A DNA stretch of 64,000 nucleotides from a virus (taxonomy: Duplodnaviria; Caudoviricetes), in the IMG/VR virus record IMGVR_UViG_3300021400_001615, positions 32,001 to 96,000 of that record. One strand, given 5' to 3'. A model generated the notes under the pieces. The model made no database searches. It had not been told where the DNA came from and saw nothing but the letters and a program-made list of their open reading frames with translations. A program made the position numbers and the translations under genes. Shown here one piece after another: positions 4,745 through 57,661 of the stretch. Numbering within the stretch: position 1 is the first letter of the stretch; every line of letters begins with the position of its first letter.

Positions 4745-5671
4745 TTATTCACATCCATACATATCTCTTATTAATACACCATAAGTATTAAGATAGGTAA
4801 TTGCATTTTGAATTTTGCCATATCTTTTTTCGTGTTTGCTTCTGTGTTTTATTATTGCATCCTCAACCGTAATGGATTTATTATTAGCAATTTCACTTAT
4901 ATACCACATCCTTCCCGATTCGGACAACGCCTTAAATGTAAGTGAAGGCATGCCCAAGTAATCACCGCAAGTATGAAGTCTTTTACCTATGATCACCGTG
5001 TTATTTGCCCTGGTACAATTTCTTTTTATATTTCTAATAACACGATCACCATCAGTATATTCGTATTCATATGCCTTTTGATTTGCTGTTAAAGAATACC
5101 GGCTCGTTTCCTCAACAGCAACATTTATAATATGTTTCAGATCGTTAGAAATTATAATGCTGCTACCGTTGCACAATATCAATCTGTTTCCGTCTTGTAT
5201 GTCACTTAATTTTACATTGTACATACAGTTATCTTTAATTGGTATTCCCTCGAATGCCCCAAGCATTAAAAACCTGTCAGCATAATTTGGGATTTCGCTT
5301 ATAGAAGACATTAATTCCTCTTTTGTAAATAAGTTCTTGCGCAGCGCATTTAAATTTACGCACTTACATAGCATTAAGGAATTGATTTCTTCGTAATGGT
5401 TTTGGTTGTCAGATACCATTCCGTTAGAAATACACCAGTTTGTGTACATGGATAAATAATTATGGATTATTATCAGAGTCTGTATGTTTGGTGTACTGTA
5501 ATACTTATAGAAGGTTATTATCTCGTCAGAATTCCATTCGCATAGATCTCGCCCATAATCTTTTTCAAACGGTTCGGCCAATGTAAACATATCATTTATG
5601 TTGTTTGATATTGTGGCTCTTTCCATTTTCTCTTTCAAAAACTGAGCTTTCCGTTCTCTATTAAACATCAT
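4745..5671 (-). CDS. MrpR/YopR-like repressor (degenerate tyrosine-recombinase fold)
   Basis: MFNRERKxxFL N-terminus, size, and position after YopP/YopQ-like genes as in SPbeta. Confidence 0.55.
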   Translation of the reverse strand: MMFNRERKAQFLKEKMERATISNNINDMFTLAEPFEKDYGRDLCEWNSDEIITFYKYYSTPNIQTLIIIHNYLSMYTNWCISNGMVSDNQNHYEEINSLMLCKCVNLNALRKNLFTKEELMSSISEIPNYADRFLMLGAFEGIPIKDNCMYNVKLSDIQDGNRLILCNGSSIIISNDLKHIINVAVEETSRYSLTANQKAYEYEYTDGDRVIRNIKRNCTRANNTVIIGKRLHTCGDYLGMPSLTFKALSESGRMWYISEIANNKSITVEDAIIKHRSKHEKRYGKIQNAITYLNTYGVLIRDMYGCE

Positions 5672-6912
5672 CCCACCTCCTTTATCTTATTCATTATTAC
5701 ATTTACGCCCTTCTTGCGTATCATGCCGGAACTCTGCACCCTCAACAAGCTTGACTCTTCTTTTGAAAGATTGTTGAATATATTAATAATAGTATTACAA
5801 TACTTTTCTCTTGGAATATCAGAAGCAAACGTGCATATTGTTATAAACAATAATTCTTCGCTGTATTTGCCAAGGAACAATTCATTCTGCTCTGTAATTA
5901 AATTAAAATCACCAACGAGCTTATTTTTAATTTTGATTACATGGGCCATTTCCTCTTCTTTCTTCACTTTACGATCAACAAAGAAATAAGAAATCAGTTT
6001 ACCCAATACTGCATCATTAATCTTGGCATCGTTTCTTCCAATCATGCCCTGGATATTACACCCGGGATCATTATTGATTCTTTGTATAATTTTGTTTGGG
6101 ATAGAGTTTGTATTATACGAATCCGAAACAACTTTTTTCATTGGCGTTTTTTGATCTTGCTGGAATATAAAACTGTTTGCCTTTGAATTGCTGAAATTAA
6201 CCACTCTCAGTTCCATTGGGTAATCGAACTGTGGATCAAAATCATATATTTGAGACATTGCTATATATCTGTGATAACCATCATCCAGGTTAAACATATT
6301 TTTAGGAAGTGAAGTAATAGTAAGAATGTTATTGTCGAAATAGAATTCGGAACCGTCGGGCATATTCAGTGTAATTGGATCTGGAATATATGTTCCGTTT
6401 TCCATTGCATTTTTAATTTCTTTTACATTTTTCTTGCTTATGAATGGCTTGTAGATTTCAATATCACCGGATTTCATTTTCCGAAATGCTCTCTGTTCGC
6501 CTTCTTCATAGTTGATCAATCTAGCTTTCTTGAATTTCATTAATTCCTTTACGGATGTTTTGCCTATCCATTGATCAGAAGAGATTTGCACCATATCCTT
6601 TAATACTATCGGAAAATCAATCTTTTCTTCTACAAACTTTTCGTTTGATAAATATTCGATTTCGCTATCAGTAAAGTACTTTTTTAAACATTTTGGATCT
6701 ATACAATAGACAACACAGAATACTTCAAATGTAGTAAATTCGCTTACGTCCTTTTTAAAAGATATCATTTCCTCGGCAACATTAATAGGAAGATTAAACT
6801 TCTTATACACACTATCATAGACCGATCTACAATCAGAGCGTTTTGTCATCCTCTTGAATAATGTTTCCGCATAGGAATTAAGCTGCTCTCTGCTTTTTTC
6901 ACCGTATAACAT
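5668..6912 (-). CDS. YopQ-like protein with ParB/DndB-type DGxHR motif
   Basis: LDDGYHR motif; synteny. Confidence 0.6.
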   Translation of the reverse strand: MLYGEKSREQLNSYAETLFKRMTKRSDCRSVYDSVYKKFNLPINVAEEMISFKKDVSEFTTFEVFCVVYCIDPKCLKKYFTDSEIEYLSNEKFVEEKIDFPIVLKDMVQISSDQWIGKTSVKELMKFKKARLINYEEGEQRAFRKMKSGDIEIYKPFISKKNVKEIKNAMENGTYIPDPITLNMPDGSEFYFDNNILTITSLPKNMFNLDDGYHRYIAMSQIYDFDPQFDYPMELRVVNFSNSKANSFIFQQDQKTPMKKVVSDSYNTNSIPNKIIQRINNDPGCNIQGMIGRNDAKINDAVLGKLISYFFVDRKVKKEEEMAHVIKIKNKLVGDFNLITEQNELFLGKYSEELLFITICTFASDIPREKYCNTIINIFNNLSKEESSLLRVQSSGMIRKKGVNVIMNKIKEVG

Positions 6913-6972
6913 AGCTATTAAACCTCCTTTCCTTTAATTTAGCACATAAAACTTTATATTGCAAATAATACA

Positions 6973-7953
6973 TCAGATAATCATCTTACCGATAATATCC
7001 GCAGCCTTTTTAGATGCCTTTTCTTTTTGACCTCTAATATATAACCCAGTAGTTTTCGGGTCTGCGTGACCGGCACATTCCTGAGCCAAATAAAGATCCC
7101 CGGTGTCCTCGTACAAGTTTGTAATAAATGTTCCACGCATTTTATGCGGCGTAATGTTTTTTTCTTTAATTACGACTCCGTAAGATTTAACAATGTTATA
7201 AATAGTTCGCGTTGTCATTCTCCTTTTTCTATCCGAAACAAACAATGCAGTCTCGTTGTCACCGACTATTTCTTTTCTTACAGACAGCCAGTCTTTAATG
7301 TAATTCAATGTTTGCTCTGATACATACACCGACCTGGAAAGATCTCCCTTTTCCAAAACGGTTATTGAACGAGATTTCATATTAATGTTATTAATATCAA
7401 GCTTATATAAGGCTGAACATCTTATTCCAGTATTTAAAAATATTGTTATAATGGCGAGATCTCTTATTTTCCACTTGTTCTCTTTATTACTTGATTTGAC
7501 ATTATTAATAAACGTAACGATCTCATCTTTTGTCATGTAACCCTTTTCTCGCTTATCTCTCGTGGTCTGCCTTTCTTTAAATTTTGGTCTCTTAACCGAT
7601 TGCATATAATCTTCATTACAAACTCCATCTGCCTTTAAAAACGACGAGAATTTTTTAAGGGCAGAATACACATCTATTCTATACGACGAAGATTTCTGTT
7701 TTAAAGTTGACATATATTTTGTATAATTGCCAAGTTTAATTTTTGAAATATCGTCAAGCTGAACATTGTTTAAAAAATTGATAACACATCCGAGATAATT
7801 ATAAGACGCAGAATAAGACGTATCAGATAACATGAAATAATAAAAATCTTCAAGGTATGGCTTGTCATTATTATCAGCAATTCTCTTCTTGGCCGATTTT
7901 TCAAAATCGTTATTATAAACTTCAATACCTGTCATTGTAACACCTCCGTTCAT
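6973..7953 (-). CDS. Tyrosine recombinase (YopP-like)
   Basis: TGIRCSAL, TPHKMR, AGH, TTGLY catalytic motifs. Confidence 0.9.
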   Translation of the reverse strand: MNGGVTMTGIEVYNNDFEKSAKKRIADNNDKPYLEDFYYFMLSDTSYSASYNYLGCVINFLNNVQLDDISKIKLGNYTKYMSTLKQKSSSYRIDVYSALKKFSSFLKADGVCNEDYMQSVKRPKFKERQTTRDKREKGYMTKDEIVTFINNVKSSNKENKWKIRDLAIITIFLNTGIRCSALYKLDINNINMKSRSITVLEKGDLSRSVYVSEQTLNYIKDWLSVRKEIVGDNETALFVSDRKRRMTTRTIYNIVKSYGVVIKEKNITPHKMRGTFITNLYEDTGDLYLAQECAGHADPKTTGLYIRGQKEKASKKAADIIGKMII

Positions 7954-8995: not shown

Positions 8996-9304
8996 TTATG
9001 ATAATTTCCATGTTATTTCTTCCCACCCAAAACTGTCACAATAATACCAATACCAATAATCTTTACCATCATCCTTTAAGGCAATAACATCTGAAACAGA
9101 AAGCGAATGTCCACGGAAATCATTCGGATGATTAATATTGAATTCTTCCCAGAGATTAGCGAGAATGTATTTCTTTTCTCTTTCGCCGGAATACACTTCT
9201 TTATAATCGTCAATCGAGAATCCATACTTCTCAGCCTCATCCCACCCTCTGAATGCGTAAGCAGTTTTTCTTATGTCTTTCAGCTGATAAATTTTGAATT
9301 TCAT
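8996..9304 (-). CDS. YodL-like domain protein
   Basis: IYQLK...FNINHPNDFRGHSLSVSDVI. Confidence 0.75.
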   Translation of the reverse strand: MKFKIYQLKDIRKTAYAFRGWDEAEKYGFSIDDYKEVYSGEREKKYILANLWEEFNINHPNDFRGHSLSVSDVIALKDDGKDYWYWYYCDSFGWEEITWKLS

Positions 9305-9320: not shown

Positions 9321-9839
9321 TTATTTAATTCTCTCAAGATCTCCGTGACATATACTACAACGCCAATTATCGGGATGTTTAACCACTTGACACATCCTGA
9401 ACTTGCCAGTCTCCACGCCGCATTTTTTGCAGCGAAGAATGTACTTGGGAACAACATAATCCGCTGCAACAGAATTGCTTACTCCTTTGTCTTCCCTACT
9501 ATCAATTCTTTTAATATTATACCCAAGTTCTCTTTTTACCTTTTCAGCCCGAAGCTGCCATCCATTGCCATGGTTAAAACAACCTGGACAAGTATGAAGG
9601 ATCTCATGGATTATAGTATTCTGCAATGCTTCAAGTGGGACCCTTTCATCCAGAAGAACCTCGGATATATTAATAGAATAGGTAGTGGGAATAGCATACC
9701 CCCTTCTCTCAATGTGGCACTGACCCCAGCGCCGTTTCGCTCTGGTATTCACCGTAACCTTAATAATTTTTCCATAGTCAATACCAATTTCATCCATCAT
9801 AACAATACAATTCTGAAAAACTTTCTGAAGATCTCTCAT
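9321..9839 (-). CDS. SprT-like zinc metalloprotease
   Basis: HEILH plus C-terminal CxxC...CxxC. Confidence 0.8.
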   Translation of the reverse strand: MRDLQKVFQNCIVMMDEIGIDYGKIIKVTVNTRAKRRWGQCHIERRGYAIPTTYSINISEVLLDERVPLEALQNTIIHEILHTCPGCFNHGNGWQLRAEKVKRELGYNIKRIDSREDKGVSNSVAADYVVPKYILRCKKCGVETGKFRMCQVVKHPDNWRCSICHGDLERIK

Positions 9840-10239: not shown

Positions 10240-10596
10240 TCAGATATTTCTAATCACAATTCCATTTGCATCTACTTCAACCGGTTCGCATCGTTCGGGG
10301 TTTCTTAATATATAACCCCACTTAACGAAACCCCTCATATCATATTTACTATATGGTCTGACTCGATGGCGCAGATAATCAAAAGTAAACTGCGTGTATG
10401 TACTATACATAATCTCCGCTACTATATCTACATAGCCAACGAGTTTTGCCTTTCCACAACCAGTACGAATAATTCCGACTCTCTGACCAACAAGCGATCT
10501 AAGTGTTGGCTTTTCTCTTGTTTCCACGGTTTTCATTCCATCAAGAATCAAATTCGTAAATGGTGTTTCATTGTCATTAATATTAATTGCTTTCAT
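10240..10596 (-). CDS. ASCH-domain protein
   Basis: ILDGMKTVETR (GxKxxExR) motif. Confidence 0.75.
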   Translation of the reverse strand: MKAININDNETPFTNLILDGMKTVETREKPTLRSLVGQRVGIIRTGCGKAKLVGYVDIVAEIMYSTYTQFTFDYLRHRVRPYSKYDMRGFVKWGYILRNPERCEPVEVDANGIVIRNI

Positions 10597-13500
10597 TCAA
10601 ACTTCTCCCAGTAATCATCTTTCATACGGTTTCTGATCTTAGCCTTTGCAGCCTTTTCCGTTTTGCAACCGGCTACCGAAAAATCACAAGTTCCAATGAT
10701 TTGTTTATTGCCTCTCCACAGACCATAACCCTCATCATCTGTGTGATAGTTTTTCCATTTTGTATATCTATAGGTCACATTTACCGGTGTCTTTTCTTTT
10801 GTGAAGAAATTCTCATAATACGTCAAGTATTTTTCTCCGTATTTCATTTGCGCTCTCCTCTCATAAAGCTTCTTTTATTAGTTACTAAATGCTATTGTCG
10901 CACCATAAGTTCCAAGACAATCCGTTCTTTTGAAAATTTCACTTAATAACGCAAAGTCAACATCTTCAACTGTATATGTAGTAAGATCATGAATATCTTC
11001 TTCAATCTCTTCATCATAATCACCAAGCTGAAGATTTGCTTCTACTGCTTTACGAATTGCTTCTAAATTCGTGTCAGCCTCAACAAGAAACTGTGTGAGA
11101 TCGTCTTCCCATGTTACTAATTTAAGTGTCATCATATCACTTCCTCTCATAAAGCTTGATTTTTATTTGTTGACCACTGACCATGTATTCCCGCCGTGAT
11201 CCATGTACAAGCATCTTCCAGATTCCGTTTTGTTAATCACTGCATCAGGATCTTTATGACTGAGATCAAGCGTGTACTTCAGTTTCATCATTGCTTCATA
11301 AGCAGTTTTTGCTCCAAATCCCCAAGTTGCTCCCGTGTCAAGGTTTGTTACATAAATCATATTTTTATCTCCCTTCATCAAACGTGATTCTTATTCTTCA
11401 ATTTCAAGGACAATTTGTGGATATTCTCTGCCGTATCTTCTTACTGTATCAATAAAAATTGTTTCAACTCGCCGATTCCCATATTTCTCTACCAGCTCAT
11501 CTTCAGTTTCTGTTATCACGTCATCTTTCGCCGTATCGAATACAACAACTATGTCTGCATTTTCTGAAGTGTAATACTGTACTTTCCATTCTTCATCAAT
11601 ACCAATATTTTCAAGAAATTCTTTAAGCATCATAGACGACATCTCCCTTCACAAAACGTGTATTTTATTCATCTTCATCTGTTTCTTCAACATCGACCTC
11701 ATCATAATGAGTATCAGCGACTGGGTATCTAGCGTCTCGGCAAAAAAGTTTATAAGCTTTATCTTCCGCTTCGTTCTCGTCTTCTGCGTTTACACAATAT
11801 TCCATATACTTTGTAAATGTAACAATATAATTTGCCATTTGTTCTCCCTTCATCAAGCGTGATTTTCATTTAATCCCATTTCTAATTATATTCAATATTT
11901 CTTTTCTATATCTTTCATAATACATATCCAGATAATATTCCATTTCTTCATCATTTTTAACTAACTCAGTCAGCTTGTACATTTTGTCATGGTTTATAAA
12001 ATGACATGAACTTACATACCATTCATTATCATCAACATTGAATCCATAACAAAATTCCATGAATATATCTTCTTTTGGTATTCTGAAATAATCATTTACA
12101 GATACACAACCACCCATATCCAGTTCCGCAATAACATCAATTTTAGTGAGCAATTCAGATTCCGTCTTGATGTTGAATAACTCAATACCAAGTGATTCTA
12201 AATGTGAATCACAATGATGATATCCATATTTAACCATCCCATCTTTAATAATTCCCACATAAGATCTTGTTGACATATAATCCTCTCCCTTCATCAAACG
12301 TGTCTTTTATCAAAAGTCTCTCAGCTGATACTTGTCTTTCACGATATATTCCTCAATATTAATATCAACAATTGATTTAACTCTTGCTTTCTTAATTGCC
12401 TGTTCAACTGTTTCCGCTTTTATCTTTTTTGTTTTATATGTGTTACCAACAACGTAATCAATAATGTATGTTTTCATGTCATCATCTCCTTTCATAAGGT
12501 TAACTTATTGCTTCAGCTTTTAACTTACAATCAATCAACGTGTTCTCGTGATATAAACCTCTATAGTAATCATCAACATTCCTATCATGCAGTCGCCAAT
12601 GATCACCATAAACCCTGTCCCATGTTTTTAATATATAAAATCTGCCATCTTCGCTTTCATATTCGCCGGGTTCTATCCGTTTCCATTTGATCATTTAATC
12701 ATCTCCTTTTCCCACAACTTTGGCCAATTCTCATACAGGTCAGAATCTACTCTATGCCTATCATCTGCATAAGCCCAAAGGCTTGCAACTGTTCTGCCAG
12801 TTTCCTTTTCCCATCCTTCCGTATACCAGCCACTATATATAAAATCACCATATTTCTCAATAACCTCTTCAATGTTCATATACGGGAGTCTGACCTGTGT
12901 TCTGCATGTAGTTCCTTTTTCTTTCCATACATCAAAAATCAACATTACTTTATATTTATTACTGCCAGAAAATTTTTCTTTGAGACTTTCCATTGCATCG
13001 TCTCCCTTCATAAAAGCTGTTTTTCATCTGTTCGGGACATATCCGTTTCGTCTGCATTCTGCTTCACACTCTTTTCTTGTTTTCCCGCTTGCTACATAAT
13101 TGTCCCAACAATCTTTTGCGATCCATCTGTAGGTGTACTCAAGTCCGAAATAACCGGTTCTGTACTTCTCAAGGTATGCTCTCGGTTTCCGTCTTTTCAT
13201 GTTATCACCTCCTTGCTCCATCAAGAATTTCAGTTACCTTACGCTGGCATTCCTGATAAGTTCCAGTGAATGTGTATCCATTAGTGCATCTAAGTGTATA
13301 CGTTCCGTCTTTGTTGGGTTCAATTACCATGTTTTATCTCCCTTCTTTAAAACTCATCCATATGTATCTCATCAATACATACCGGATCATCACCATCATC
13401 AATGACCGCAATGTATGCCTCTGGATCACCAAGATTCAAAGCCATTTTCTTTGCCTTATCCAGATCGTGGCTGCCGTAACCCCAATCATTGTCATCCCTG

Positions 13501-13991
13501 TTTCGCATTACTGCGTACCAAAGTTTCATTTACATTTTCTCCCTTCTTTAATTAATCAACATATTATACAGTGCATCTCTGCACTCTTCATCGGTGAGTT
13601 CCCTTATCTGATCCCGACCGTACACAAAATCACCAGATTTATTATGGACGGTGTAATCATACGTGCCGTTATCATAGCAGTATATTTCACTTATTACACC
13701 GATTTCACCGTAAACATTGGTGTCGTAGCAACCGTCCGGCATGTCAACAATTACCTTTACTAATGAGCCAAGTAACATAAGCTATTCTCCTCTCATCAAA
13801 CCTATCTTTCATTAGTCTTCTCTTGCACAGATTGTGTAAATTTCTGCATCAAGAATTACTTCACCAGTGTCCATATCCTCAAGTGCAATATTTGCGGGAT
13901 TATCAACATCTCCGTAAATAGCAATCTCAACCTTATGGCCGAAATGTTCTTTCAGAATATTCCACAGCAGTTCGTTCATTTTCTTATCCAT
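10593..13991 (-). CDS. Run of small hypothetical genes: 10593-10847, 10878-11135, 11163-11360, 11391-11642, 11665-11838, 11866-12276, 12310-12477, 12500-12694, 12691-12993, 13024-13200, 13347-13529, 13548-13778, 13812-13991
   Basis: Tandem ORFs each with a GGAG-type RBS; starts corrected to the ATG after the RBS. Confidence 0.7.
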
Positions 13992-14725
13992 ATCTTGTGT
14001 TTCCTTTCTTGTTTAATCACAACATGTTGTGCTTATACCACTCATGAAATAACCGTTTTATATTAAATCCATTCGTCCATTTCAAAAACGTTATCTGCGA
14101 GATAGTCATCTTCCGAGACTTCCGAAGCATTGACTTCTCTTACCATCGTCTCCAGGTCATCTTTTGTCCACATATCTGCCGGAACAAAAATCAACTCGTG
14201 GATCGAAGACGGCAGGATGTAATATGTTCCAATTTTCTGTTCCATTGCTTTCAGAAATTCTTCACAGTACAGAAGTCCACCGCCATACATCTTGCAATCA
14301 AGAGTTGCGACGTTCATTGGATCGCCGCTGAATTTGAAATTTTCAAGAGTCTCACCTTCAGAGAATAACAAGGACATCATAGAACCAAGCCTTACTCTGC
14401 GCATCATATTAGCCTTCGCTTTATAGATCTGTTCTGGCGTTACGTTCCCAAGGAAAGCAATCTTTCCATCCAGATCGTAGGCAACATAGAAATAGATTCC
14501 GTTCTTGACGGCAATCGGTTTTATTCTGCTGTCCTTGCGGTTCTTATAGCTTCTAGCAACAATGACAAGCACGTCATCAGTTGCGTTGTTCACTTCATTT
14601 ACCAGTTCATTGTACATTGGATCTTTCTCTGTAAGGTTCATGATTTTGTTTACCATATCTTGTATCTCCTTTCATTATAAACCACAATATCTTGTGTTAT
14701 ATTTCCCTATGAAATCGTTGTTTTA
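10862..14725 (-). repeat. Dispersed intergenic repeat, consensus TRAAA-N6-YTTNA-TG-AAGGGAG, about 12 copies
   Basis: Copies near 10862, 11148, 11376, 11650, 11851, 12292, 12493 (partial), 13009, 13219, 13794, 14043, 14708, each between a stop codon and the next gene. Confidence 0.8.
14063..14656 (-). CDS. DUF5688-like protein
   Basis: YYILPSSIHELIFVP...MVREVN...LADNVF. Confidence 0.7.
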   Translation of the reverse strand: MVNKIMNLTEKDPMYNELVNEVNNATDDVLVIVARSYKNRKDSRIKPIAVKNGIYFYVAYDLDGKIAFLGNVTPEQIYKAKANMMRRVRLGSMMSLLFSEGETLENFKFSGDPMNVATLDCKMYGGGLLYCEEFLKAMEQKIGTYYILPSSIHELIFVPADMWTKDDLETMVREVNASEVSEDDYLADNVFEMDEWI

Positions 14726-16409: not shown

Positions 16410-17441
16410 TTAAGCGGCCTTGGCCAGCTTATAACCAAGGTCGATCAGCTTTGCCTTACCAATGTTGTTATCATTGGCGACCGACATGAACAGCTTCTGA
16501 TTATAGTTCTTCGTTTTCCTGTGCAGATCAGTATGAGTAGCATAATCACTGATTGCATTCCAAAGACGGAACTGATTGTGATCGAGGTGCTGAAGATCCG
16601 GTGCGTCAAAATACCTTGCGGTCAGATCGTTCCTTACCGCAATGATATCACGCTGGAGCGTTTCGATCTTTTCGAGATTCTTAAACTTCTCGCTTGTGTT
16701 GATCGGCACGATCTTCTTAAGCGTCTCGATCTTGGCCAGCTTCGGTGCTGTTTCCTGCACCACGATCTGGTCGAGGATCTGGATTGCTCTCTCCTCGGTG
16801 ATCTTTGCCCTCTTCATGGTGTCAATTTCCTTTCCGAGAGCTTCCATATAAGCCTGTCCGTTGCGAAGCGTCTGGATTGCTTCGTCTACGTGAGACTTAA
16901 CATTTGTGGTGTGACGGTAAGACCAGCTTCTCTTTGCACCGGACAGAGAAGCATTCAGCGTATTCTGGCATACAACACGGATCGGGGAAATAGCCGCACG
17001 AATTGCTCCACCGCCACCGTGGGTGTTTGTCAGGATGTAATAATCCTGAATGAATTCCTCAGCGAATGTAGTTCCCTCGGTCATGGCACACAGCCATGTC
17101 ACTCTGCCTTTGTCCAGAGAACCGGCAGTTTCGATCTTTGCACCAAGGCCGATCATTTCCTTACTAAGATCGAACAGTTCCTGATTCTGGAAAGGCACGT
17201 ATGTTTCCTTTACAAAGCCGTAATGCTGACCATCTGTTACACGACGAATCTCATATTCGTCATCAAGATTACGCACAGTTCCGTCTGCCAGAAGCTGCAC
17301 GGCCTGGACCTTTTCCACATCCCATTCAAGACCGGCTGCCTTGATAGCTGCGTCATATGTGGGATAATCCTCAAGGATGATGCCCTGTCCATGCCACGGG
17401 ATTTCTCTTACACTGAACATGTTTTCTACATTTGCTGCCAT
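16410..17441 (-). CDS. DUF932-family protein
   Basis: MAANVENMFSVREIPWHGQG...AGLEWDV...ETAGSL...PIRVVCQNTL. Confidence 0.85.
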   Translation of the reverse strand: MAANVENMFSVREIPWHGQGIILEDYPTYDAAIKAAGLEWDVEKVQAVQLLADGTVRNLDDEYEIRRVTDGQHYGFVKETYVPFQNQELFDLSKEMIGLGAKIETAGSLDKGRVTWLCAMTEGTTFAEEFIQDYYILTNTHGGGGAIRAAISPIRVVCQNTLNASLSGAKRSWSYRHTTNVKSHVDEAIQTLRNGQAYMEALGKEIDTMKRAKITEERAIQILDQIVVQETAPKLAKIETLKKIVPINTSEKFKNLEKIETLQRDIIAVRNDLTARYFDAPDLQHLDHNQFRLWNAISDYATHTDLHRKTKNYNQKLFMSVANDNNIGKAKLIDLGYKLAKAA

Positions 17442-29750: not shown

Positions 29751-30509
29751 ATGAGCAAATACTATATTTCTAATAATATTCGATTTATACAGGGTCTTGG
29801 CAACTTAATGGATAATCCTACATCTGCCACTCATATGCAGCACAATGACGCGCAAAGGTATATTAGCATGCATCCGGATCATATGATGGTTAGAGTTGGA
29901 AAGAAACGTAGATATATTATTTCTACAAATCAGAAGTATGTCGGCAAAAATGGCGAAATAGTCAACAATATGTCTTCTGCTATTAATTTCGGCTCCCAGG
30001 ATGAGGCATTTTCTTATATTGATAATAATAGCGAAATCTGTGCTAAACTTGGCGATGCGTTTGTAATAGACGAAAATTTCAAAAAGATTCATAGAGAAAA
30101 AACAGTCAAACCGCAGCAGCCAAAGAAAAGCGCTAACGAGAATTCTGCGCAAAGAATTATATTTTCAAAGCAAACACGGCAGACAGTCTTGACTAACTAT
30201 AATTACACATGCCCAATTTGCGGCAAAACACTTTCTGCCGGAGACGTAACAATTGATCATATAGTTCCGCTTTCCAGAGGTGGCACAAATAGCTTGGATA
30301 ATTTAAGGCCAGTTCACTCTATGTGTAACCATATGAAAAACAATTGTACAGATGATGAATTCTACGGCGGAGTTGCTGACATTGCATGTAATTATTTGTA
30401 TAATTCGCCGCAATCAGAAATGGCAATGCGTATTATACGCAGTATGGTCAGGGGGACAATTCAAAATAAACCCGACTATTTTGGCGCTAATAATATTAGA
30501 GGGGTGTGA
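29751..30509 (+). CDS. HNH endonuclease
   Basis: CPICG...TIDHIVPLSRGGTN...NL...CNHMK. Confidence 0.9.
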   Translation: MSKYYISNNIRFIQGLGNLMDNPTSATHMQHNDAQRYISMHPDHMMVRVGKKRRYIISTNQKYVGKNGEIVNNMSSAINFGSQDEAFSYIDNNSEICAKLGDAFVIDENFKKIHREKTVKPQQPKKSANENSAQRIIFSKQTRQTVLTNYNYTCPICGKTLSAGDVTIDHIVPLSRGGTNSLDNLRPVHSMCNHMKNNCTDDEFYGGVADIACNYLYNSPQSEMAMRIIRSMVRGTIQNKPDYFGANNIRGV

Positions 30510-30515
30510 TGTGTA

Positions 30516-33227
30516 TTGGGTCAGTATGGCTGGAAAATAAAAAACTTTAAAGCTGCGACAGTATATGGCAAAAATATAGGCATACGTGACAGGTATGACT
30601 ATACAGATGCCATGCTGCATCATTCGTTATTTACGGCGTGGCTTAAAAAAAATGGAATGACTACTGATAAGAATGATGAGTCTACCAGAGATATAATCTG
30701 TATGGATTTTCAATTTGGTCTGCGCAGTTATAGGGAAGAGGTAAACCATTTAAAGCAGATGAGAAAAGATGCTGATGGTAATCCGGAAAAACTGGCCGTA
30801 ATTGATATGCTTGATAAAAAGGTAGAGGCTAATAAGAGTCTGTACAAAAAATTAAGCAAAGATGATATACGGAAGATTTTTTATGAGAATGGTGTTCCTA
30901 TTACATATTCTTATACTAATAAAAAAACAAATGAGACGGTTAGCGAAACCATCCATTATAAAATGCTTTACCGTAATCCTTCCAAAGCTAAACAGGGAAG
31001 TTGTATGTTTATAAGGGAAGAGTTATATGATAAAGCATATGATTGGTTAACAATGGGGATAGGTGAACGTTTGCCGGATCATAATGCAAAAATTGTGGAA
31101 ATATCTGCATATGCACCACTCTCCACTTCTGCTATTGAGGGAACTGTACATATTCCGGTAAAAGATGTGCTTATTCTTAATGACCAAGATAGTTTCTTTA
31201 GAACAATTGCAGATATTGTTCGTGCTGAAGATTACCAAATTATGTTTCGCGGAAAAACTAAAACAAGGAAGCGTTGCACTGTACACAGAGAAGAAACTGA
31301 TGTAAAAAATACTTTATGGGATGGTATGGCTTTAATCGAAACCTCAATAATGCCCGACTGGTGCAACGGAATGGCCTTGTTAAGAAATCATTTTTTCAAG
31401 GCTTGTGCATTTCGGAGTAAAATACAAAAATTCTTATCAGATTATTGTTATGAACATAATATAGATTATGATACATATACAATTAGAGATATGTTTGGAA
31501 AAAAACATCTAGCCAAAGATATCAAAATGATTACCACGGATAATGCTATTAAATGGAAAAAGTTTACCGATTTAATAGGAGGCACTCTTCCGAAGGCGTA
31601 TAAATATTGGTGTAAAAGAGTTAAAGAAGATGGATCAATTTGGGGCATAGTAAAAACCGATCACCAATCAAAGCTTGGCAATGTACAGCAGATGTCTTAT
31701 CAGATGATTAATACTCTCCCATGTTCCAAAGAAGACATTGCCGAGATAGCTAAAACAAGTGTTGATTATGTCACTTTACTCCGCAATAATGATGATGAGT
31801 TCGAAAAATATTTGCGCAAAAACGCAAACATTATAAATCACTATGATATGTTAGCCGACATGAGAGACTGGAACAGCGATTTTAATAAAAGTCATATGTG
31901 GAAAGTTGATAAGTCAGATATTATTAATGCGTATGTGGCAAAATTGCGCAAGGGAAAAATTACCGTCAACGGTGATAATCTAACTGTTTGCGGTAATCCA
32001 TACGCATTGTTGCTATATACTGTTGGGCAACCGTGGGAAGAAGATCCAACATTAAAGCCTGATGACGGTGTTATACAAATATATACTAAAAGGTTTGATG
32101 ACGGCGAGTATTTGTGTGGTATACGAAATCCGCATAATAGTGCTAATAATATAGGTTATTTTAAGAACGTTAAACATCCATTAATGGAAAAATATTTCGA
32201 TTTTAGCAATAATATTATGGCTGTTAATTGTATTCATACTGATGTTCAGGCTAGAATGAATGGAGAGGATTTTGATTCCGATTTTAATTTTGTTACTAAT
32301 CAGCCACAAATGGTTGAAGCTGCCCGTATAGCATATAGAGACTATCCAACGGTTGTCAATGAAATTGGTGAAAGCGGAATGTCTTATGATAATACGATGG
32401 CCGAATATGCCCGTATGGATTCTGCAATGCAAAGTGCGCAGAAAGCTATTGGCGGCTCCAGTGATACTGCCCAGCTTGCGCAGACTTATTATTGGACTAA
32501 AGTTAATAAAAAGGAGTTTGACGATGACTGCAAACAGTATTACGAAAATACGGTTATACTTGCCGTCTGTGCGCAATTGGCCATTGATGGATGCAAACGT
32601 GTGTTCGAGGTAAATGTTAACAATGATATTGCCAGGATACGTTCGCAGCCATGCATGAAAATGAAAAAAGATTACCCCGCTTTTATGAAATGGACCAAGG
32701 AAATTCCGGTAACAAAGAATGGCAAAGATAGGTCTTATGCGGAAATTAAAAAGGACAAAGATAAACTAAAGGAAAGAATAAACGAGAATCTTCAATGTCC
32801 TATGAATTGGTTACAAGATTGTTTTGATAAGCTGCAAGGAATTGATAAAAAAAGTGGCATTAAAACGATGTCATTTTTCATTAAGATTGAAGAAAAAAAA
32901 CCGAATAATCGTCAAATGTCAAGAATTCGTAAATTAGTCGAGGAATATGACTATTTTATTAAAAGCCATTTAGACTATTTTGATACTTCAGATGGTTTTG
33001 AATTGTTGGTTAATTATCATAATAACCTTATGGAAAATATAAAGTTGAGACCGATTGGTCATCAAACAATGAATAGATTAATTGAGGCTTCACTTGGTTT
33101 ACTTGGCAGAGGTATAAGATATAAGAAAGCTACAAAATTTACAAGAAAAATGCTAAACGTGCTATATCAATATGATCATGAAAAATTTCTAAAAAATTTT
33201 GTCAAAAAATCGCAAATATTTAATTAA
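30516..33227 (+). CDS. YonO-like single-subunit RNA polymerase
   Basis: RNPH...MNGEDFDSD catalytic loop, LAIDGCK; followed by HU as in SPbeta. Confidence 0.8.
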   Translation: MGQYGWKIKNFKAATVYGKNIGIRDRYDYTDAMLHHSLFTAWLKKNGMTTDKNDESTRDIICMDFQFGLRSYREEVNHLKQMRKDADGNPEKLAVIDMLDKKVEANKSLYKKLSKDDIRKIFYENGVPITYSYTNKKTNETVSETIHYKMLYRNPSKAKQGSCMFIREELYDKAYDWLTMGIGERLPDHNAKIVEISAYAPLSTSAIEGTVHIPVKDVLILNDQDSFFRTIADIVRAEDYQIMFRGKTKTRKRCTVHREETDVKNTLWDGMALIETSIMPDWCNGMALLRNHFFKACAFRSKIQKFLSDYCYEHNIDYDTYTIRDMFGKKHLAKDIKMITTDNAIKWKKFTDLIGGTLPKAYKYWCKRVKEDGSIWGIVKTDHQSKLGNVQQMSYQMINTLPCSKEDIAEIAKTSVDYVTLLRNNDDEFEKYLRKNANIINHYDMLADMRDWNSDFNKSHMWKVDKSDIINAYVAKLRKGKITVNGDNLTVCGNPYALLLYTVGQPWEEDPTLKPDDGVIQIYTKRFDDGEYLCGIRNPHNSANNIGYFKNVKHPLMEKYFDFSNNIMAVNCIHTDVQARMNGEDFDSDFNFVTNQPQMVEAARIAYRDYPTVVNEIGESGMSYDNTMAEYARMDSAMQSAQKAIGGSSDTAQLAQTYYWTKVNKKEFDDDCKQYYENTVILAVCAQLAIDGCKRVFEVNVNNDIARIRSQPCMKMKKDYPAFMKWTKEIPVTKNGKDRSYAEIKKDKDKLKERINENLQCPMNWLQDCFDKLQGIDKKSGIKTMSFFIKIEEKKPNNRQMSRIRKLVEEYDYFIKSHLDYFDTSDGFELLVNYHNNLMENIKLRPIGHQTMNRLIEASLGLLGRGIRYKKATKFTRKMLNVLYQYDHEKFLKNFVKKSQIFN

Positions 33228-34209: not shown

Positions 34210-35025
34210 TTGGGTCATGAATTCTATAAAGGTTATAAAGAAATAACCGGAAATACTTATGAAATAAATGAGTACATGGAGAACATCAATACGTCCATTT
34301 GGTATCCAAATGAGTATTTGATTATTAACAATATTGATGATGGAAGTACAAAAGAAATGCGCTGGGATGGAAACAGTTTTGTTCCATTAAGACTTCCAAA
34401 TTCTAAATTTATAAAAGGAAAGAATGCTCTGCAAAGATGCGCTCTTGATATGCTTAATAATAAGGATATTACTATTTGTGTAATACTTGGTACTTATGGC
34501 AGCGGAAAATCTTACCTTCTTACTAGAATGGCCGATTACTGTGTTAGGGAAAAAGGATGGCAATCCAAGATTTGTTTTATTCGTGAACCTTGGGGTGAAG
34601 GTCGTGAAGAGGGTTATTTAAAGGGGGATTTTTCGCAGAAGAATGAAATATGGACTCTTCCGATTAAACAGCAATTTGATGGTCAAGAGTATGAGGTTGA
34701 CCGAATGCAGGATCAGGGTCTCATTGAATTTAATATTCCTACTTATATGAAAGGGACCACCTATCCATATACCGTCATGGTCATCGATGAAGCGGAAGAT
34801 CTGACGGAAAAACAGATAAGACTTATTGGCACTAGAATAGGCGAGGGAGGAAGAACGTTCTGGGATGGCGATTATAGACAATCGCTGTTGGATGATTCTT
34901 ATGATAATCCTCTCTTAAAAATGTGTAATGAATTTAAAGGTTCAAAGCTATTTGGAGTTATCACTCTTGAAGAAGATGTTAGAAGCGAAACCAGTAGGTT
35001 ATTCGCTAATTTATTTAATGATTAA
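34210..35025 (+). CDS. phoH: PhoH-family ATPase
   Basis: GTYGSGKS, MKGTT, VIDEAE, GTRIGEG, GDYRQ, RS motifs. Confidence 0.9.
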   Translation: MGHEFYKGYKEITGNTYEINEYMENINTSIWYPNEYLIINNIDDGSTKEMRWDGNSFVPLRLPNSKFIKGKNALQRCALDMLNNKDITICVILGTYGSGKSYLLTRMADYCVREKGWQSKICFIREPWGEGREEGYLKGDFSQKNEIWTLPIKQQFDGQEYEVDRMQDQGLIEFNIPTYMKGTTYPYTVMVIDEAEDLTEKQIRLIGTRIGEGGRTFWDGDYRQSLLDDSYDNPLLKMCNEFKGSKLFGVITLEEDVRSETSRLFANLFND

Positions 35026-36083: not shown

Positions 36084-36305
36084 ATGGCTAAAAATTATAC
36101 ATACAATAGAGTTTTGACTGATAAGTTTAATATTAAAGGTGTTCTTTCCGAGGACTGCAAAACTATTACCTATGTAAATGGTGATAAGGAAGAACTGCAA
36201 ATTGATGTAGCTAAATGTTTCGAACCGTTTAAGGGCGAGGAAATTACTCTTGTTATTACTGTTAAGCAGGATCAGGATCTTTCGGATGAATTTGAGGAGG
36301 AATGA
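36084..36305 (+). CDS. YonK-like small protein
   Basis: Size and synteny before the metallophosphoesterase. Confidence 0.5.
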   Translation: MAKNYTYNRVLTDKFNIKGVLSEDCKTITYVNGDKEELQIDVAKCFEPFKGEEITLVITVKQDQDLSDEFEEE

Positions 36306-36306
36306 T

Positions 36307-37512
36307 ATGGCCTCTGTAAATCTTAACAAAAGACCCGATGAATCTGAGCTTGGTTATATTAATAGGATAGGTAACTATAAGGTTTCCGGTATTATTGATA
36401 TGACCTGGACGGAATTGGCGGACTTATTTAATAAAAATTTACGTGAACCCGGCGAATGGTGGACTGAGTCTGCATATAGAAAGAAGTTCGCAAACATGCG
36501 ACGCTTCAAAGAGGAATTTGCCGGTGACACTACTGATATTAATGAAATTGATGAGCTTAAAGAACTTAAACGTGAGTTAGAAAAAGAGAAAGTCAAAGTT
36601 CGTGACGAGCGCAATGAATACCGCAAGCTGATCCGTGACGAGGCTAGGAAGGAGTCTTATCAGGATCAGTTTATTCGTTCCATTGAAGAAACAGCAGGAA
36701 AATACGCTCTTGATAATACTGTTAAATATCACATTCATACTGTTTCGGATAATGATATGATTATTTGTTTAACGGATATACATGCCGGTATAGAGGTCCA
36801 TAATTTCTGGAATAATTATGATAAAGATATACTTAAAGAACGTTTACAGCATTATCTTTCTAGAATACATGAAATTAGAGAAAGACATAAAGCTCAGAAT
36901 GCTTACCTTGTTATCTCTGAACTTTTGTCTGGTATAATTCATCCAACTCTTCGTATTCAAAATAACCAGGATCTTATAGATCAATTTTTAATGATCACAG
37001 ATTATCTTTGCGATTTCATTAAAGATCTGAGTACAGAATTTAATAATGTAAACGTGTATGTTGCTCCCGGAAATCATAGCAGAATAAATCCAAAGAAGGA
37101 TCAAGATCTTGCTCACGAAAATATGGATAATTTGGTTATTCCTTTTTTAAAAGCGAGATTGCAAAATTATTCCAATGTAAAATGCTGGGATAATCTTATA
37201 GAACAATCTATGGCTGTTTTTAACGTTAGGAAATTGACGGTTGTTGCTGTACATGGTGACAGGGATTCTTTTTCTTCCGTAGCTGATAATGTAAGTAAGA
37301 TGTTGGGTGCGAAGGTTGATTTGGTGATTACTGGTCATAAGCATACCAACAGAATGATGACAGATTCTGACGTGAAGGTTGTTCAAAGTGGGTGCTTATC
37401 TGGAAGTGATGAGTTTGCTATTAATAATAGGCTTAGGAACAGGCCGGAACAGGTTGTTTGCATTATATCTGAAGCAGAGGGACTTGATTGTATTTATGAT
37501 ATTAAGTTTTAA
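36307..37512 (+). CDS. Metallophosphoesterase (YonJ-like)
   Basis: TDIH, GNH, HGD, GHKH motifs. Confidence 0.85.
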   Translation: MASVNLNKRPDESELGYINRIGNYKVSGIIDMTWTELADLFNKNLREPGEWWTESAYRKKFANMRRFKEEFAGDTTDINEIDELKELKRELEKEKVKVRDERNEYRKLIRDEARKESYQDQFIRSIEETAGKYALDNTVKYHIHTVSDNDMIICLTDIHAGIEVHNFWNNYDKDILKERLQHYLSRIHEIRERHKAQNAYLVISELLSGIIHPTLRIQNNQDLIDQFLMITDYLCDFIKDLSTEFNNVNVYVAPGNHSRINPKKDQDLAHENMDNLVIPFLKARLQNYSNVKCWDNLIEQSMAVFNVRKLTVVAVHGDRDSFSSVADNVSKMLGAKVDLVITGHKHTNRMMTDSDVKVVQSGCLSGSDEFAINNRLRNRPEQVVCIISEAEGLDCIYDIKF

Positions 37513-56629: not shown

Positions 56630-57661
56630 ATGGGTAGAAAAACAGTCTATAACAACATTACATCGCCCCAGTTAATATCTTAGGTATTACCAGAGAACAA
56701 ACAACTTGGCGAGGATTTTATTGAATATTTGCAGTCAATTGATCGTTCTCCGAGTACTATCAATCAGTATAAATCAGATCTCTCTATTTTCTGGGTATGG
56801 AATCTACAAAACAATAATAATAAACCGTTTATCAAAATTACGAAACGTGAGTTTGCCAGGTTCCAAAATTATTGTTTAAATACCTGGGGTTGGAGTTCTA
56901 ATAGAATTCGTAGAGTAAAATCTGTAATATCTTCCATGAGTAACTTTATAGAAAACATATTGGATGAGGAAGAAGAATTTGAGGGGTATCGTGCGGTAAT
57001 TCGAAAGATAGAATCGCCGGTTAAAGAAGAAGTTCGTGAGAAAACAATTTTTGAACCGGAAGAACTTCAAAGGCTTTTGGATCATTTAGTTGATCAAAAG
57101 AAATACATGCAAGCGTGTATACTCGCTCTAGCAATGTATTCCGGTAGACGTAAAGCGGAGTTGCCGAGATTTAAAGTCTCTTATTTTGACGATGAGAATG
57201 TCTTTCTTGGATCCTTATATAAAACGCCAGAAAAGGTAAAGACAAAGGGTCGTGGTTCCAGGGGTAAAATGTTAAACTTATATGTATTAAAGAAAGAATT
57301 TGATCCGTACCTCAAGCTCTGGTTAGATTACAGGAAAGAAAATGGAATTGAAAGTGAGTGGCTATTTCCAGCTGCCGATGATCCAGCTAATCATATTAAG
57401 TCAGAAAATCTTGATAATTGGGTTAATACCTATACGAAATTTTTAGGTAAGCCATTTTACTGGCATAGTCTTCGTCATATGTTTTGCACCCAATGTTTAA
57501 AGAAGAACCTTCCTTCTTCCGTTGTCCAGGAAATTATTGGTTGGGAATCTGCCGATATGGTTAATCTTTATAATGATACAACTACAGAAGAAACGCTTGC
57601 CCAGTATTTTGATGAAAATGGTATAAAGGATGTTAAATCAACAAATCTTTCAGAAATTTAA
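56630..57661 (+). CDS. Tyrosine recombinase, one TAG at codon 18
   Basis: SGRRKAEL, KTKGRG, HSLRH, IIGW, NLY. Confidence 0.88.

Follow-up and report, generated by a model that had tools for sequence, protein, structure and literature searches.

The 64,000-nucleotide (nt) stretch of DNA analyzed here (the window) extends from base 32001 to base 96000 of a virus record (IMGVR_UViG_3300021400_001615, hereafter G000) that is complete at 160,883 bp and has direct terminal repeats and a G+C content of 37%. From about 26.3 kb leftwards every gene of the window, including those at 10.6-17.4 kb, is carried by the minus strand, and within this block lies an array of small genes (Table 1) joined by a recurrent sequence element of about 27 nt. 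This junction motif, accordingly read on the minus strand, has the form T(A/G)A-AAA-N6-TTT(G/T)-ATGA(A/G)(G/A)GGAGA, with an ATG 4-9 nt further on. Alignment of 33 distinct copies drawn from eight sequences, the sample behind the copy-alignment statistics given below, yields the consensus ATAAAA-N6-TTTGATGAAGGGAGA. It is at these joints that related phages differ by whole genes.

The junction motif and its setting

At 10.85-14.72 kb the motif is present in 11 copies (eight strong, one weak and two long variants), close to the dozen or so reported in a preliminary description made from the sequence alone. The 18-mer core, with at most three mismatches allowed, occurs five times in the window, whereas only 0.06 occurrences are expected from shuffled sequences. 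When the entire 160,883-bp genome was scanned with a weight matrix at a threshold of at least 14 bits, 12 sites were found on the minus strand and two on the plus strand, compared with 1.4 on both strands of first-order simulated genomes; nine of the 12 minus-strand sites fall at window positions 10864-13796. In leave-one-out scoring, eight copies reached 17.7-34.3 bits and the weak copy, at 12495, 6.7 bits. Within the 160.9-kb genome the motif is almost confined to the array, all its array copies share the orientation of the genes, and it was never seen without a gene start downstream.

The layout proposed earlier, in which the left arm supplies the upstream stop codon and the right side runs into the next ribosome-binding site, proved correct. 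The upstream stop codon lies exactly 15 nt ahead of ATGA in 25 of the 33 copies, and the right side of the motif is the Shine-Dalgarno (SD) site of the next gene, the SD spanning +2 to +9 and the start codon lying most commonly at +18. Conservation amounts to 1.2-2.0 bits at each of the AAAA, CA, TTT and ATG positions, and the intergenic regions in the array measure 16-37 nt. The SD itself is distinctive: the form GAAGGGAG precedes six of the 13 genes at 10593-14000 and none of the 190 genes elsewhere in the genome, where AGGAG, GAGG or AAGGAGG serves as the ribosome site. According to our own pairing, this 8-nt form can pair with the usual 3′ end of 16S rRNA, including one G-U wobble. In 20 of the 33 copies the motif's own ATG shares the reading frame of the real start codon (spacing of 15 or 18 nt), which may reflect no more than a preferred 8-nt distance between SD and start. 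Some of the out-of-frame motif ATGs open a mini open reading frame of 4-6 codons that ends at or near the real start, and public gene calls for the family of cassette c11 (11866-12276) place the start at the motif, giving a protein of 142 rather than 136 residues (aa).

The preliminary description also saw inverted arms in the motif, a view that holds for the consensus and fails for individual copies. In ATRAAA-N6-TTTNAT, the two 6-nt arms are complementary at five of six positions, with one fixed mismatch. However, the pair -14/-1 is Watson-Crick in just seven of the 33 copies, and no copy displays a compensatory change between the arms; variation in one arm is unmatched by the other. The left arm is made up of the stop codon and an A-run, and the right arm of a U-run and ATG ahead of GAAGGGAG. 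Their complementarity is a property of the consensus only, arising because both arms are conserved. RNA folding of the motif copies gave minimum free energies of 0 to -3.8 kcal/mol (z from -1.2 to +1.4), no better than shuffled sequences, while single-stranded DNA folding of nine copies gave 0 to -1.9 kcal/mol, for the most part not surpassing shuffled sequences. An Rfam search of window positions 10.0-15.5 kb matched nothing. The RNA and DNA folds together with the pair counts rule out the hairpin or inverted-arm idea. A promoter or terminator within the motif was likewise ruled out by scanning: the 27 promoter-like sites detected (27.8 expected) show zero overlap with the short motif, a TATAAG/TATAAC box being present only in the two long variants, and terminator-like sites are not in excess.

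In both long variants a 38-nt insert is located exactly at a seam within the junction, between ...TTT and GAARGGAG. In it the TATAAG or TATAAC box precedes the palindrome, and the insert may be an internal promoter plus an operator for a dimeric regulator. Comparable sites were observed at L027:1672-1716 and L012:14762-14806 in other contigs, and the best promoter-like site of the region (TTGAAA-18-TAAAAT, 14754-14725) is positioned just upstream of one long variant.

Comparison of the array proteins with each other found no paralogy among those encoded between motif copies. Searches of PHROGs and Pfam with the cassette proteins returned weak or sub-cut-off matches only, except for DUF5688 in the last gene, and a nucleotide search of GenBank phages with the array gave zero matches. 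In the ESM Atlas the c11 protein appears solely among viral hypothetical proteins. A search of bacterial genomes turned up no relative of cassette c11 and so pointed to no host. On the minus strand the array is flanked by genes for YodL-like (8996-9304), SprT-like (9321-9839), weakly ASCH-like (10240-10596) and DUF932 (16410-17441) proteins, a typical early or 'leading-region' accessory set. A rightward early/middle block on the plus strand encodes an HNH endonuclease (29751-30509), a PhoH-like protein (34210-35025) and an SbcD/Mre11-like exonuclease (36250-37512).

Table 1. Array genes, junctions and recombinase genes of the window (window coordinates)
Feature	Position	Strand	Remarks
Array	10593..14656	-	15 small genes, 41-197 aa, mutually unrelated
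Array genes 1-5	10593-10847, 10878-11135, 11163-11360, 11391-11627, 11665-11838	-	11665-11838 is c29
Array genes 6-10	11866-12276, 12310-12477, 12500-12694, 12691-12993, 13024-13200	-	11866-12276 is c11, 136 aa
Array genes 11-15	13205-13330, 13347-13529, 13548-13778, 13812-13991, 14063-14656	-	14063-14656 is DUF5688
Junction copy TAATAAAAGAAGCTTTATGAGAGGAGA	10854..10880	-	upstream of 10593-10847; leave-one-out score 17.7 bits
Junction copy	11140..11166	-	upstream of 10878-11135; leave-one-out score 23.8 bits
Junction copy, exact 18-mer core	11368..11394	-	upstream of 11163-11360
Junction copy, GTGA variant	11642..11668	-	upstream of 11391-11627
Junction copy	11843..11869	-	upstream of 11665-11838; 3′ homology boundary of c11 in G001, G002, G003
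Junction copy, exact core	12284..12310	-	upstream of 11866-12276; 5′ homology boundary of c11
Weak junction copy GTTAACCTTATGAAAGGAGA	12485..12511	-	upstream of 12310-12477; 6.7 bits; shared-cassette boundary in G001, G004
Junction copy	13001..13027	-	upstream of 12691-12993
Second junction type without left half, TTAATTAAAGAAGGGAGA	13531..13547	-	3′ homology boundary of cassette 13548-13778
Junction copy	13786..13812	-	upstream of 13548-13778; extra gene inserted at the joint in G001, G003
Long junction variant	13992..14062	-	short junction + 38-nt insert with TATAAG + palindrome CACAACATGTTGTG; upstream of 13812-13991
Long junction variant	14657..14722	-	short junction + 38-nt insert with TATAAC + palindrome CACAAGATATTGTG; upstream of 14063-14656 (DUF5688)
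Recombinase trio member	4745-5671	-	MrpR-type core-binding domain + PHROG annotated integrase; no NCBIfam match
Recombinase trio member	5668-6912	-	recombinase-like; PHROG of unknown function only; no Pfam/NCBIfam match
Recombinase trio member	6973-7953	-	Phage_integrase protein
Separate recombinase	56630-57661		Phage_integrase protein; intact when TAG read as Gln

Single-gene exchange in related phages

The same junction was found in five phage records of a viral contig collection (G001-G005) and in two short metagenome contigs (L026 and L027). Each phage record has five or six junction copies of at least 14 bits and each short contig has four; every one of them points the same way as the genes, with none reversed. 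The backbone of these phages has diverged considerably: their three recombinase-like genes share 31-48% protein identity, and most DNA matches are at 65-75% identity or absent. Single array genes are common to distant phages at 88-96% nucleotide identity. Where homology between distant phages ends, it does so within 18 nt of the motif anchor in 27 of 34 cases. The 5′ ends of the shared segments lie mostly at -4 (ahead of TTTGATGA) or at -16 to -18, and the 3′ ends from +1 (after TTTGAT) to +10, that is, reaching into the ribosome site. Gene order varies as well. Cassette c29 comes after c11 in the window and before it in G002, where genes 13024-13200 and 10593-10847 adjoin each other.

The close pair G001/G003 (83-96% identical) displays whole-gene insertions and replacements at 13 joints, all of them at a stop codon, ribosome site or start codon and about five at a full motif. 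Junctions that lack the left part and consist of the ribosome site alone are equally indel boundaries in this pair. The joints are scar-free, without gene remnants. Gene gain and loss in related phages thus breaks at the motif, as would be expected from the preliminary description, which had proposed integron-like shuffling of single accessory genes. The cassette-like character of the array and the gain, loss and reordering of genes at the motif are borne out by these comparisons; an integron or tyrosine-recombinase mechanism, which was part of the same proposal, is unsupported for the reasons discussed below.

The two parts of the junction are inherited with different genes. The upstream gene keeps the tail (stop-AAAA-N6-TTT); ribosome site, spacer and start codon accompany the downstream one. 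Tail TGAAAATCA(C/A)G stands behind c11 in the window, G001 and G002, despite a different next gene in each, tail AATAAAATACACG is found behind c29 in both the window and G002, and the same tail variants recur in six phages beside different genes. Since the tail travels with the upstream gene and the homology ends cluster at -4 and +1, the seam falls between ...TTT and GAAGGGAG, on the right-hand side of the six variable nucleotides previously regarded as a spacer between arms. Across 63 junctions from nine sequences the distance between TTT and GGAG ranges from 2 to 8 nt, with a long form TTTGATGAAGGGAG and a short form TTTGAARGGAG. Judged from these alignments, the length-variable joints, the 38-nt insert at the seam and the tail-less boundaries all speak against a conservative site-specific reaction.

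Other searches gave less. Exact-pattern scans of viral and metagenome contigs produced few matches, with those in L020 and L021 looking like chance matches in unrelated contigs, and the flanking DUF932 protein, used as a query, retrieved distant phages only (about 35% identity), of no use for breakpoints. Relatives of the c11 protein at 50-73% identity occur in the small-gene arrays of other phages (L030:5001-5408 and L029:1241-1651). The one in L030 resides beside a FokI-cleavage-domain protein, an AcrVA2-like protein and a DNA methylase, in a region with long promoter-like intergenic regions and no motif; L029 has the motif at three neighboring genes but not at the c11 relative.

Function of the junction and alternative explanations

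We consider it fairly probable that the element is a portable linker for translation between cistrons, and that the short stretches of identity among its copies direct the recombination of cassettes by microhomology. More specifically, we infer that the linker has a translational role and that exchange is guided by homology rather than targeted by an enzyme. The linker would serve an early, leftward polycistronic operon and would be composed of two parts. The 3′ 'tail', a stop codon in TAAAA context followed by a 6-nt variable filler and a U-run, would belong to the upstream gene, and the 5′ 'head', (AT)GAAGGGAGA, an 8-nt extended SD with a 4-9-nt spacer and ATG, to the downstream gene. As the linker is wholly unstructured, we propose that any ORFan put into the array would get translated. 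Moreover, because many cassettes carry nearly identical stretches of 14-27 nt, the linker could act as a patch of (micro)homology for recombination. As candidate processes we envisage strand annealing, template switching or a relaxed form of homologous recombination, in co-infected cells or in the course of replication; their outcome would be single genes added, deleted, replaced or reordered without scars. The restriction of the GAAGGGAG form to array genes implies that the linker either spreads with the cassettes or is recognized by something specific, and that it is not the general ribosome site of the phage. In favor of homology-guided exchange, the genome encodes, besides the SbcD-like exonuclease, a protein with an AAA_24 match above the cut-off (44.8 bits; 321-aa open frame, G000:C1:27077-27673, about 4.3 kb before the window start). 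We take AAA_24 to be the family of Sak4-type phage annealing proteins, and on the strength of this match the protein is a candidate for short-homology recombination.

Several points weigh against a homology patch. Members of the RecA, RecT, ERF and Rad52 families were not found in the genome. Perfect identity between copies within the genome does not exceed 19 nt and reaches at least 12 nt in only four of 36 pairs; even the longest such stretch is at or below the length that RecA-type recombination needs. With so little intergenic DNA between the array genes, selection alone confines viable joints to it. In addition, since alignments run through any shared SD, the crossover cannot be placed to the nucleotide, and sequence comparison of this kind cannot prove whether homology or selection acts as the positioner. 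As to the translational side, the core reads GGGAG, a wobble variant of canonical AGGAGG, and pairing with 16S rRNA does not account for the conserved AAAA, CA, TTT and ATG.

This conservation beyond SD pairing can be read differently, namely as an address in RNA or DNA at which a dedicated regulator of the phage acts (a translational repressor or endoribonuclease working on the ribosome sites of early genes like T4 RegA/RegB, or a DNA-binding protein), with exchange as a by-product of conservation. A regulator-binding or RNA-processing site was also the alternative named in the preliminary description. The array-exclusive ribosome-site form is consistent with such an address. So is the single orientation within the early non-structural arm, a feature shared with the start-associated sequences (SAS) of Cluster K mycobacteriophages, for which a bound factor has been proposed (PMC3203893). 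However, no candidate regulator was identified in our analysis, both RNA structure and an Rfam family are absent, and the distance between TTT and GGAG differs by as much as 6 nt, a variation that would be difficult for a sequence-specific binder to accommodate. We regard a regulator site as rather unlikely to be the explanation of the motif, although it is compatible with a translation linker and the two are not mutually exclusive. Far less probable still is that no special element exists, only look-alike ribosome sites and AT-rich intergenic DNA in which illegitimate recombination was followed by selection against gene-breaking events. It is true that many G001/G003 indel boundaries lie at an ordinary SD or start without the full motif, and that intergenic regions are so short that viable joints must fall there. 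Yet the motif is far above chance and confined to the array, its tail keeps a fixed register to both the stop codon and the SD, its SD variant is missing from the other 190 genes, identical tail variants stand next to different genes in six phages, and the joints are scar-free, without gene remnants.

An enzyme-driven mechanism has to be considered in the light of the recombinases present. The window does contain the two tyrosine recombinases noted in the preliminary description, 6973-7953 and, with TAG read as Gln, 56630-57661, both bona fide Phage_integrase proteins. The first belongs to a trio of tandem, partly overlapping genes (4745-7953), which is co-directional with the array and lies 2.6 kb downstream of the last motif in the window, about 7.5 kb away in G005 and 1-7.5 kb away overall. 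G001, G002, G003 and G005 have the trio in a syntenic position downstream of the array, and its sequences diverge like the backbone. Its layout recalls 'recombinase in trio' elements, though no convincing inverted repeats were found flanking it. Against the integron-integrase model TIGR02249, protein 6973-7953 scored 45.9 bits (cut-off 265), and the best NCBIfam matches of the recombinases are Xer-type models, all below cut-off. To judge from these profile matches, the recombinases are Xer-like and not integron integrases. The association of the trio with the array is the sole point that favors an enzyme-driven mechanism as such.

If the motif were a minimal attC-like site that closes each cassette on its 3′ side and is acted on by the trio or by the 56630-57661 protein, the array would be an integron-like platform. 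Such a platform would fit the exchange of cassettes one at a time, the joint inheritance of the tail with the upstream gene, as is the case for attC, the recombinase-like trio kept in synteny downstream of the array, the presence of genuine Phage_integrase proteins, and an exact identity between copies that is short for homologous recombination. Nevertheless, we find it very unlikely. The arms of at most 6 nt show no compensatory change and form no hairpin in single-stranded DNA or RNA, the spacer is not constant among copies and is not where the crossovers map, joint length varies and a 38-nt insert is found at the seam, and tail-less junctions are equally indel boundaries in G001/G003. The enzymes are Xer-like and fall far short of the 265-bit integron-integrase cut-off, and the trio is co-directional and 2.6-7.5 kb away instead of adjacent and divergent with attI and a promoter. 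Finally, the motif always has a gene start downstream. In a narrower version the tail (16 nt, stop-AAAA-N6-TTTG) would be the attC-like site, minimal and non-folding, with which the syntenic trio captures and excises single early genes. This version seems slightly less probable again; if true, it would make the array an integron analogue carried by a phage and based on a site of a novel kind.

Returning to the portable linker, the array shows how large phages of the gut/rumen type trade small early genes singly between genomes that are about 30-50% identical in protein, and suggests that a linker of less than 30 nt doubling as the ribosome site suffices for such trade. Genes of the kind found in the array, to which no function is assigned here, serve host takeover or counter-defence in other phages, and a search for the linker sequence is a simple way into the pool of mobile accessory genes of these phages. 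It may also provide a compact test system for asking whether microhomology alone drives scar-free exchange and whether the linker has a regulatory function of its own.

Comparison with known systems

Integron attC sites are imperfect palindromes of 57-141 bp that fold as single-stranded DNA. The array resembles integrons in having promoterless single-gene cassettes in one orientation that are gained and lost at a repeated site, in the position of the repeat at the cassette 3′ end, and in an exchange point near the right end of the element. In contrast to attC, the element described here is 16-27 nt long, does not fold and is fused to the ribosome site; no IntI-type integrase was found here by the TIGR02249 criterion, and the array lacks a neighboring, divergently oriented integrase gene with attI and a cassette promoter. 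In the core sites of tyrosine recombinases (dif, lox, att core), crossover takes place within an overlap of 6-8 bp, which partner sites share exactly and which is enclosed by two inverted binding arms of about 9-13 bp. The preliminary description had likened the motif to such core sites, a comparison for which we find no support. The arms here are only 6 nt long (5/6 complementary) and do not covary, the spacer is variable (GACACG, ATCACG, AACAGC, GATAGG and others), exchange lies to the right of the spacer because the spacer follows the upstream gene, and the enzymes at hand are Xer-like.

Closer parallels exist among phage regulatory sequences. Pope et al. 2011 (PMC3203893) described SAS and ESAS in Cluster K mycobacteriophages; the SAS consensus is given as GGGATAGGAGCCC, and ESAS have 17-bp inverted repeats. 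According to the definition given there, SAS share with the motif an asymmetric conserved sequence with an SD core 3-8 nt before the start, a single orientation, restriction to the non-structural arm, a location before genes of different families and, in some instances, the upstream stop codon inside the motif (PMC3203893). The consensus here, ATAAAA-N6-TTTGATGAAGGGAGA, is nevertheless not GGGATAGGAGCCC, and the 17-bp inverted repeats of ESAS are absent here. A role as a gene-exchange joint is not described for SAS in the sections of that paper devoted to them (PMC3203893).

The promoter-early stem-loop (PeSL) cassettes of T4-type phages (Arbiol et al. 2010, PMC2839356; Comeau et al. 2014, PMC4122927) come nearer in the matter of exchange. 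A PeSL consists of a sigma-70-type promoter and a stable stem-loop terminator (PMC2839356, PMC4122927), and recombination between these repeated regulatory motifs shuffles ORFans and forms mini-circles (PMC2839356). Here too, ORFans in a hyperplastic early region are flanked by short regulatory repeats, related phages differ by insertions, deletions, replacements and reordering whose breaks coincide with these elements, and the elements are proposed to act as homology patches without a dedicated recombinase. The linker differs in having neither a sigma-70-like promoter (TATAAG/TATAAC is limited to the long variants) nor a stem-loop, and in being about 27-30 nt long, running from stop codon to ribosome site inside a single polycistronic unit. 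A literature search for mosaic boundaries at SD sites returned nothing relevant. That hyperplastic early regions are shuffled in modular fashion at repeated regulatory motifs is already known; what is different in this group of 160-kb phages is a minimal stop-to-ribosome-site linker of less than 30 nt, with separable tail and head and with neither promoter nor hairpin.

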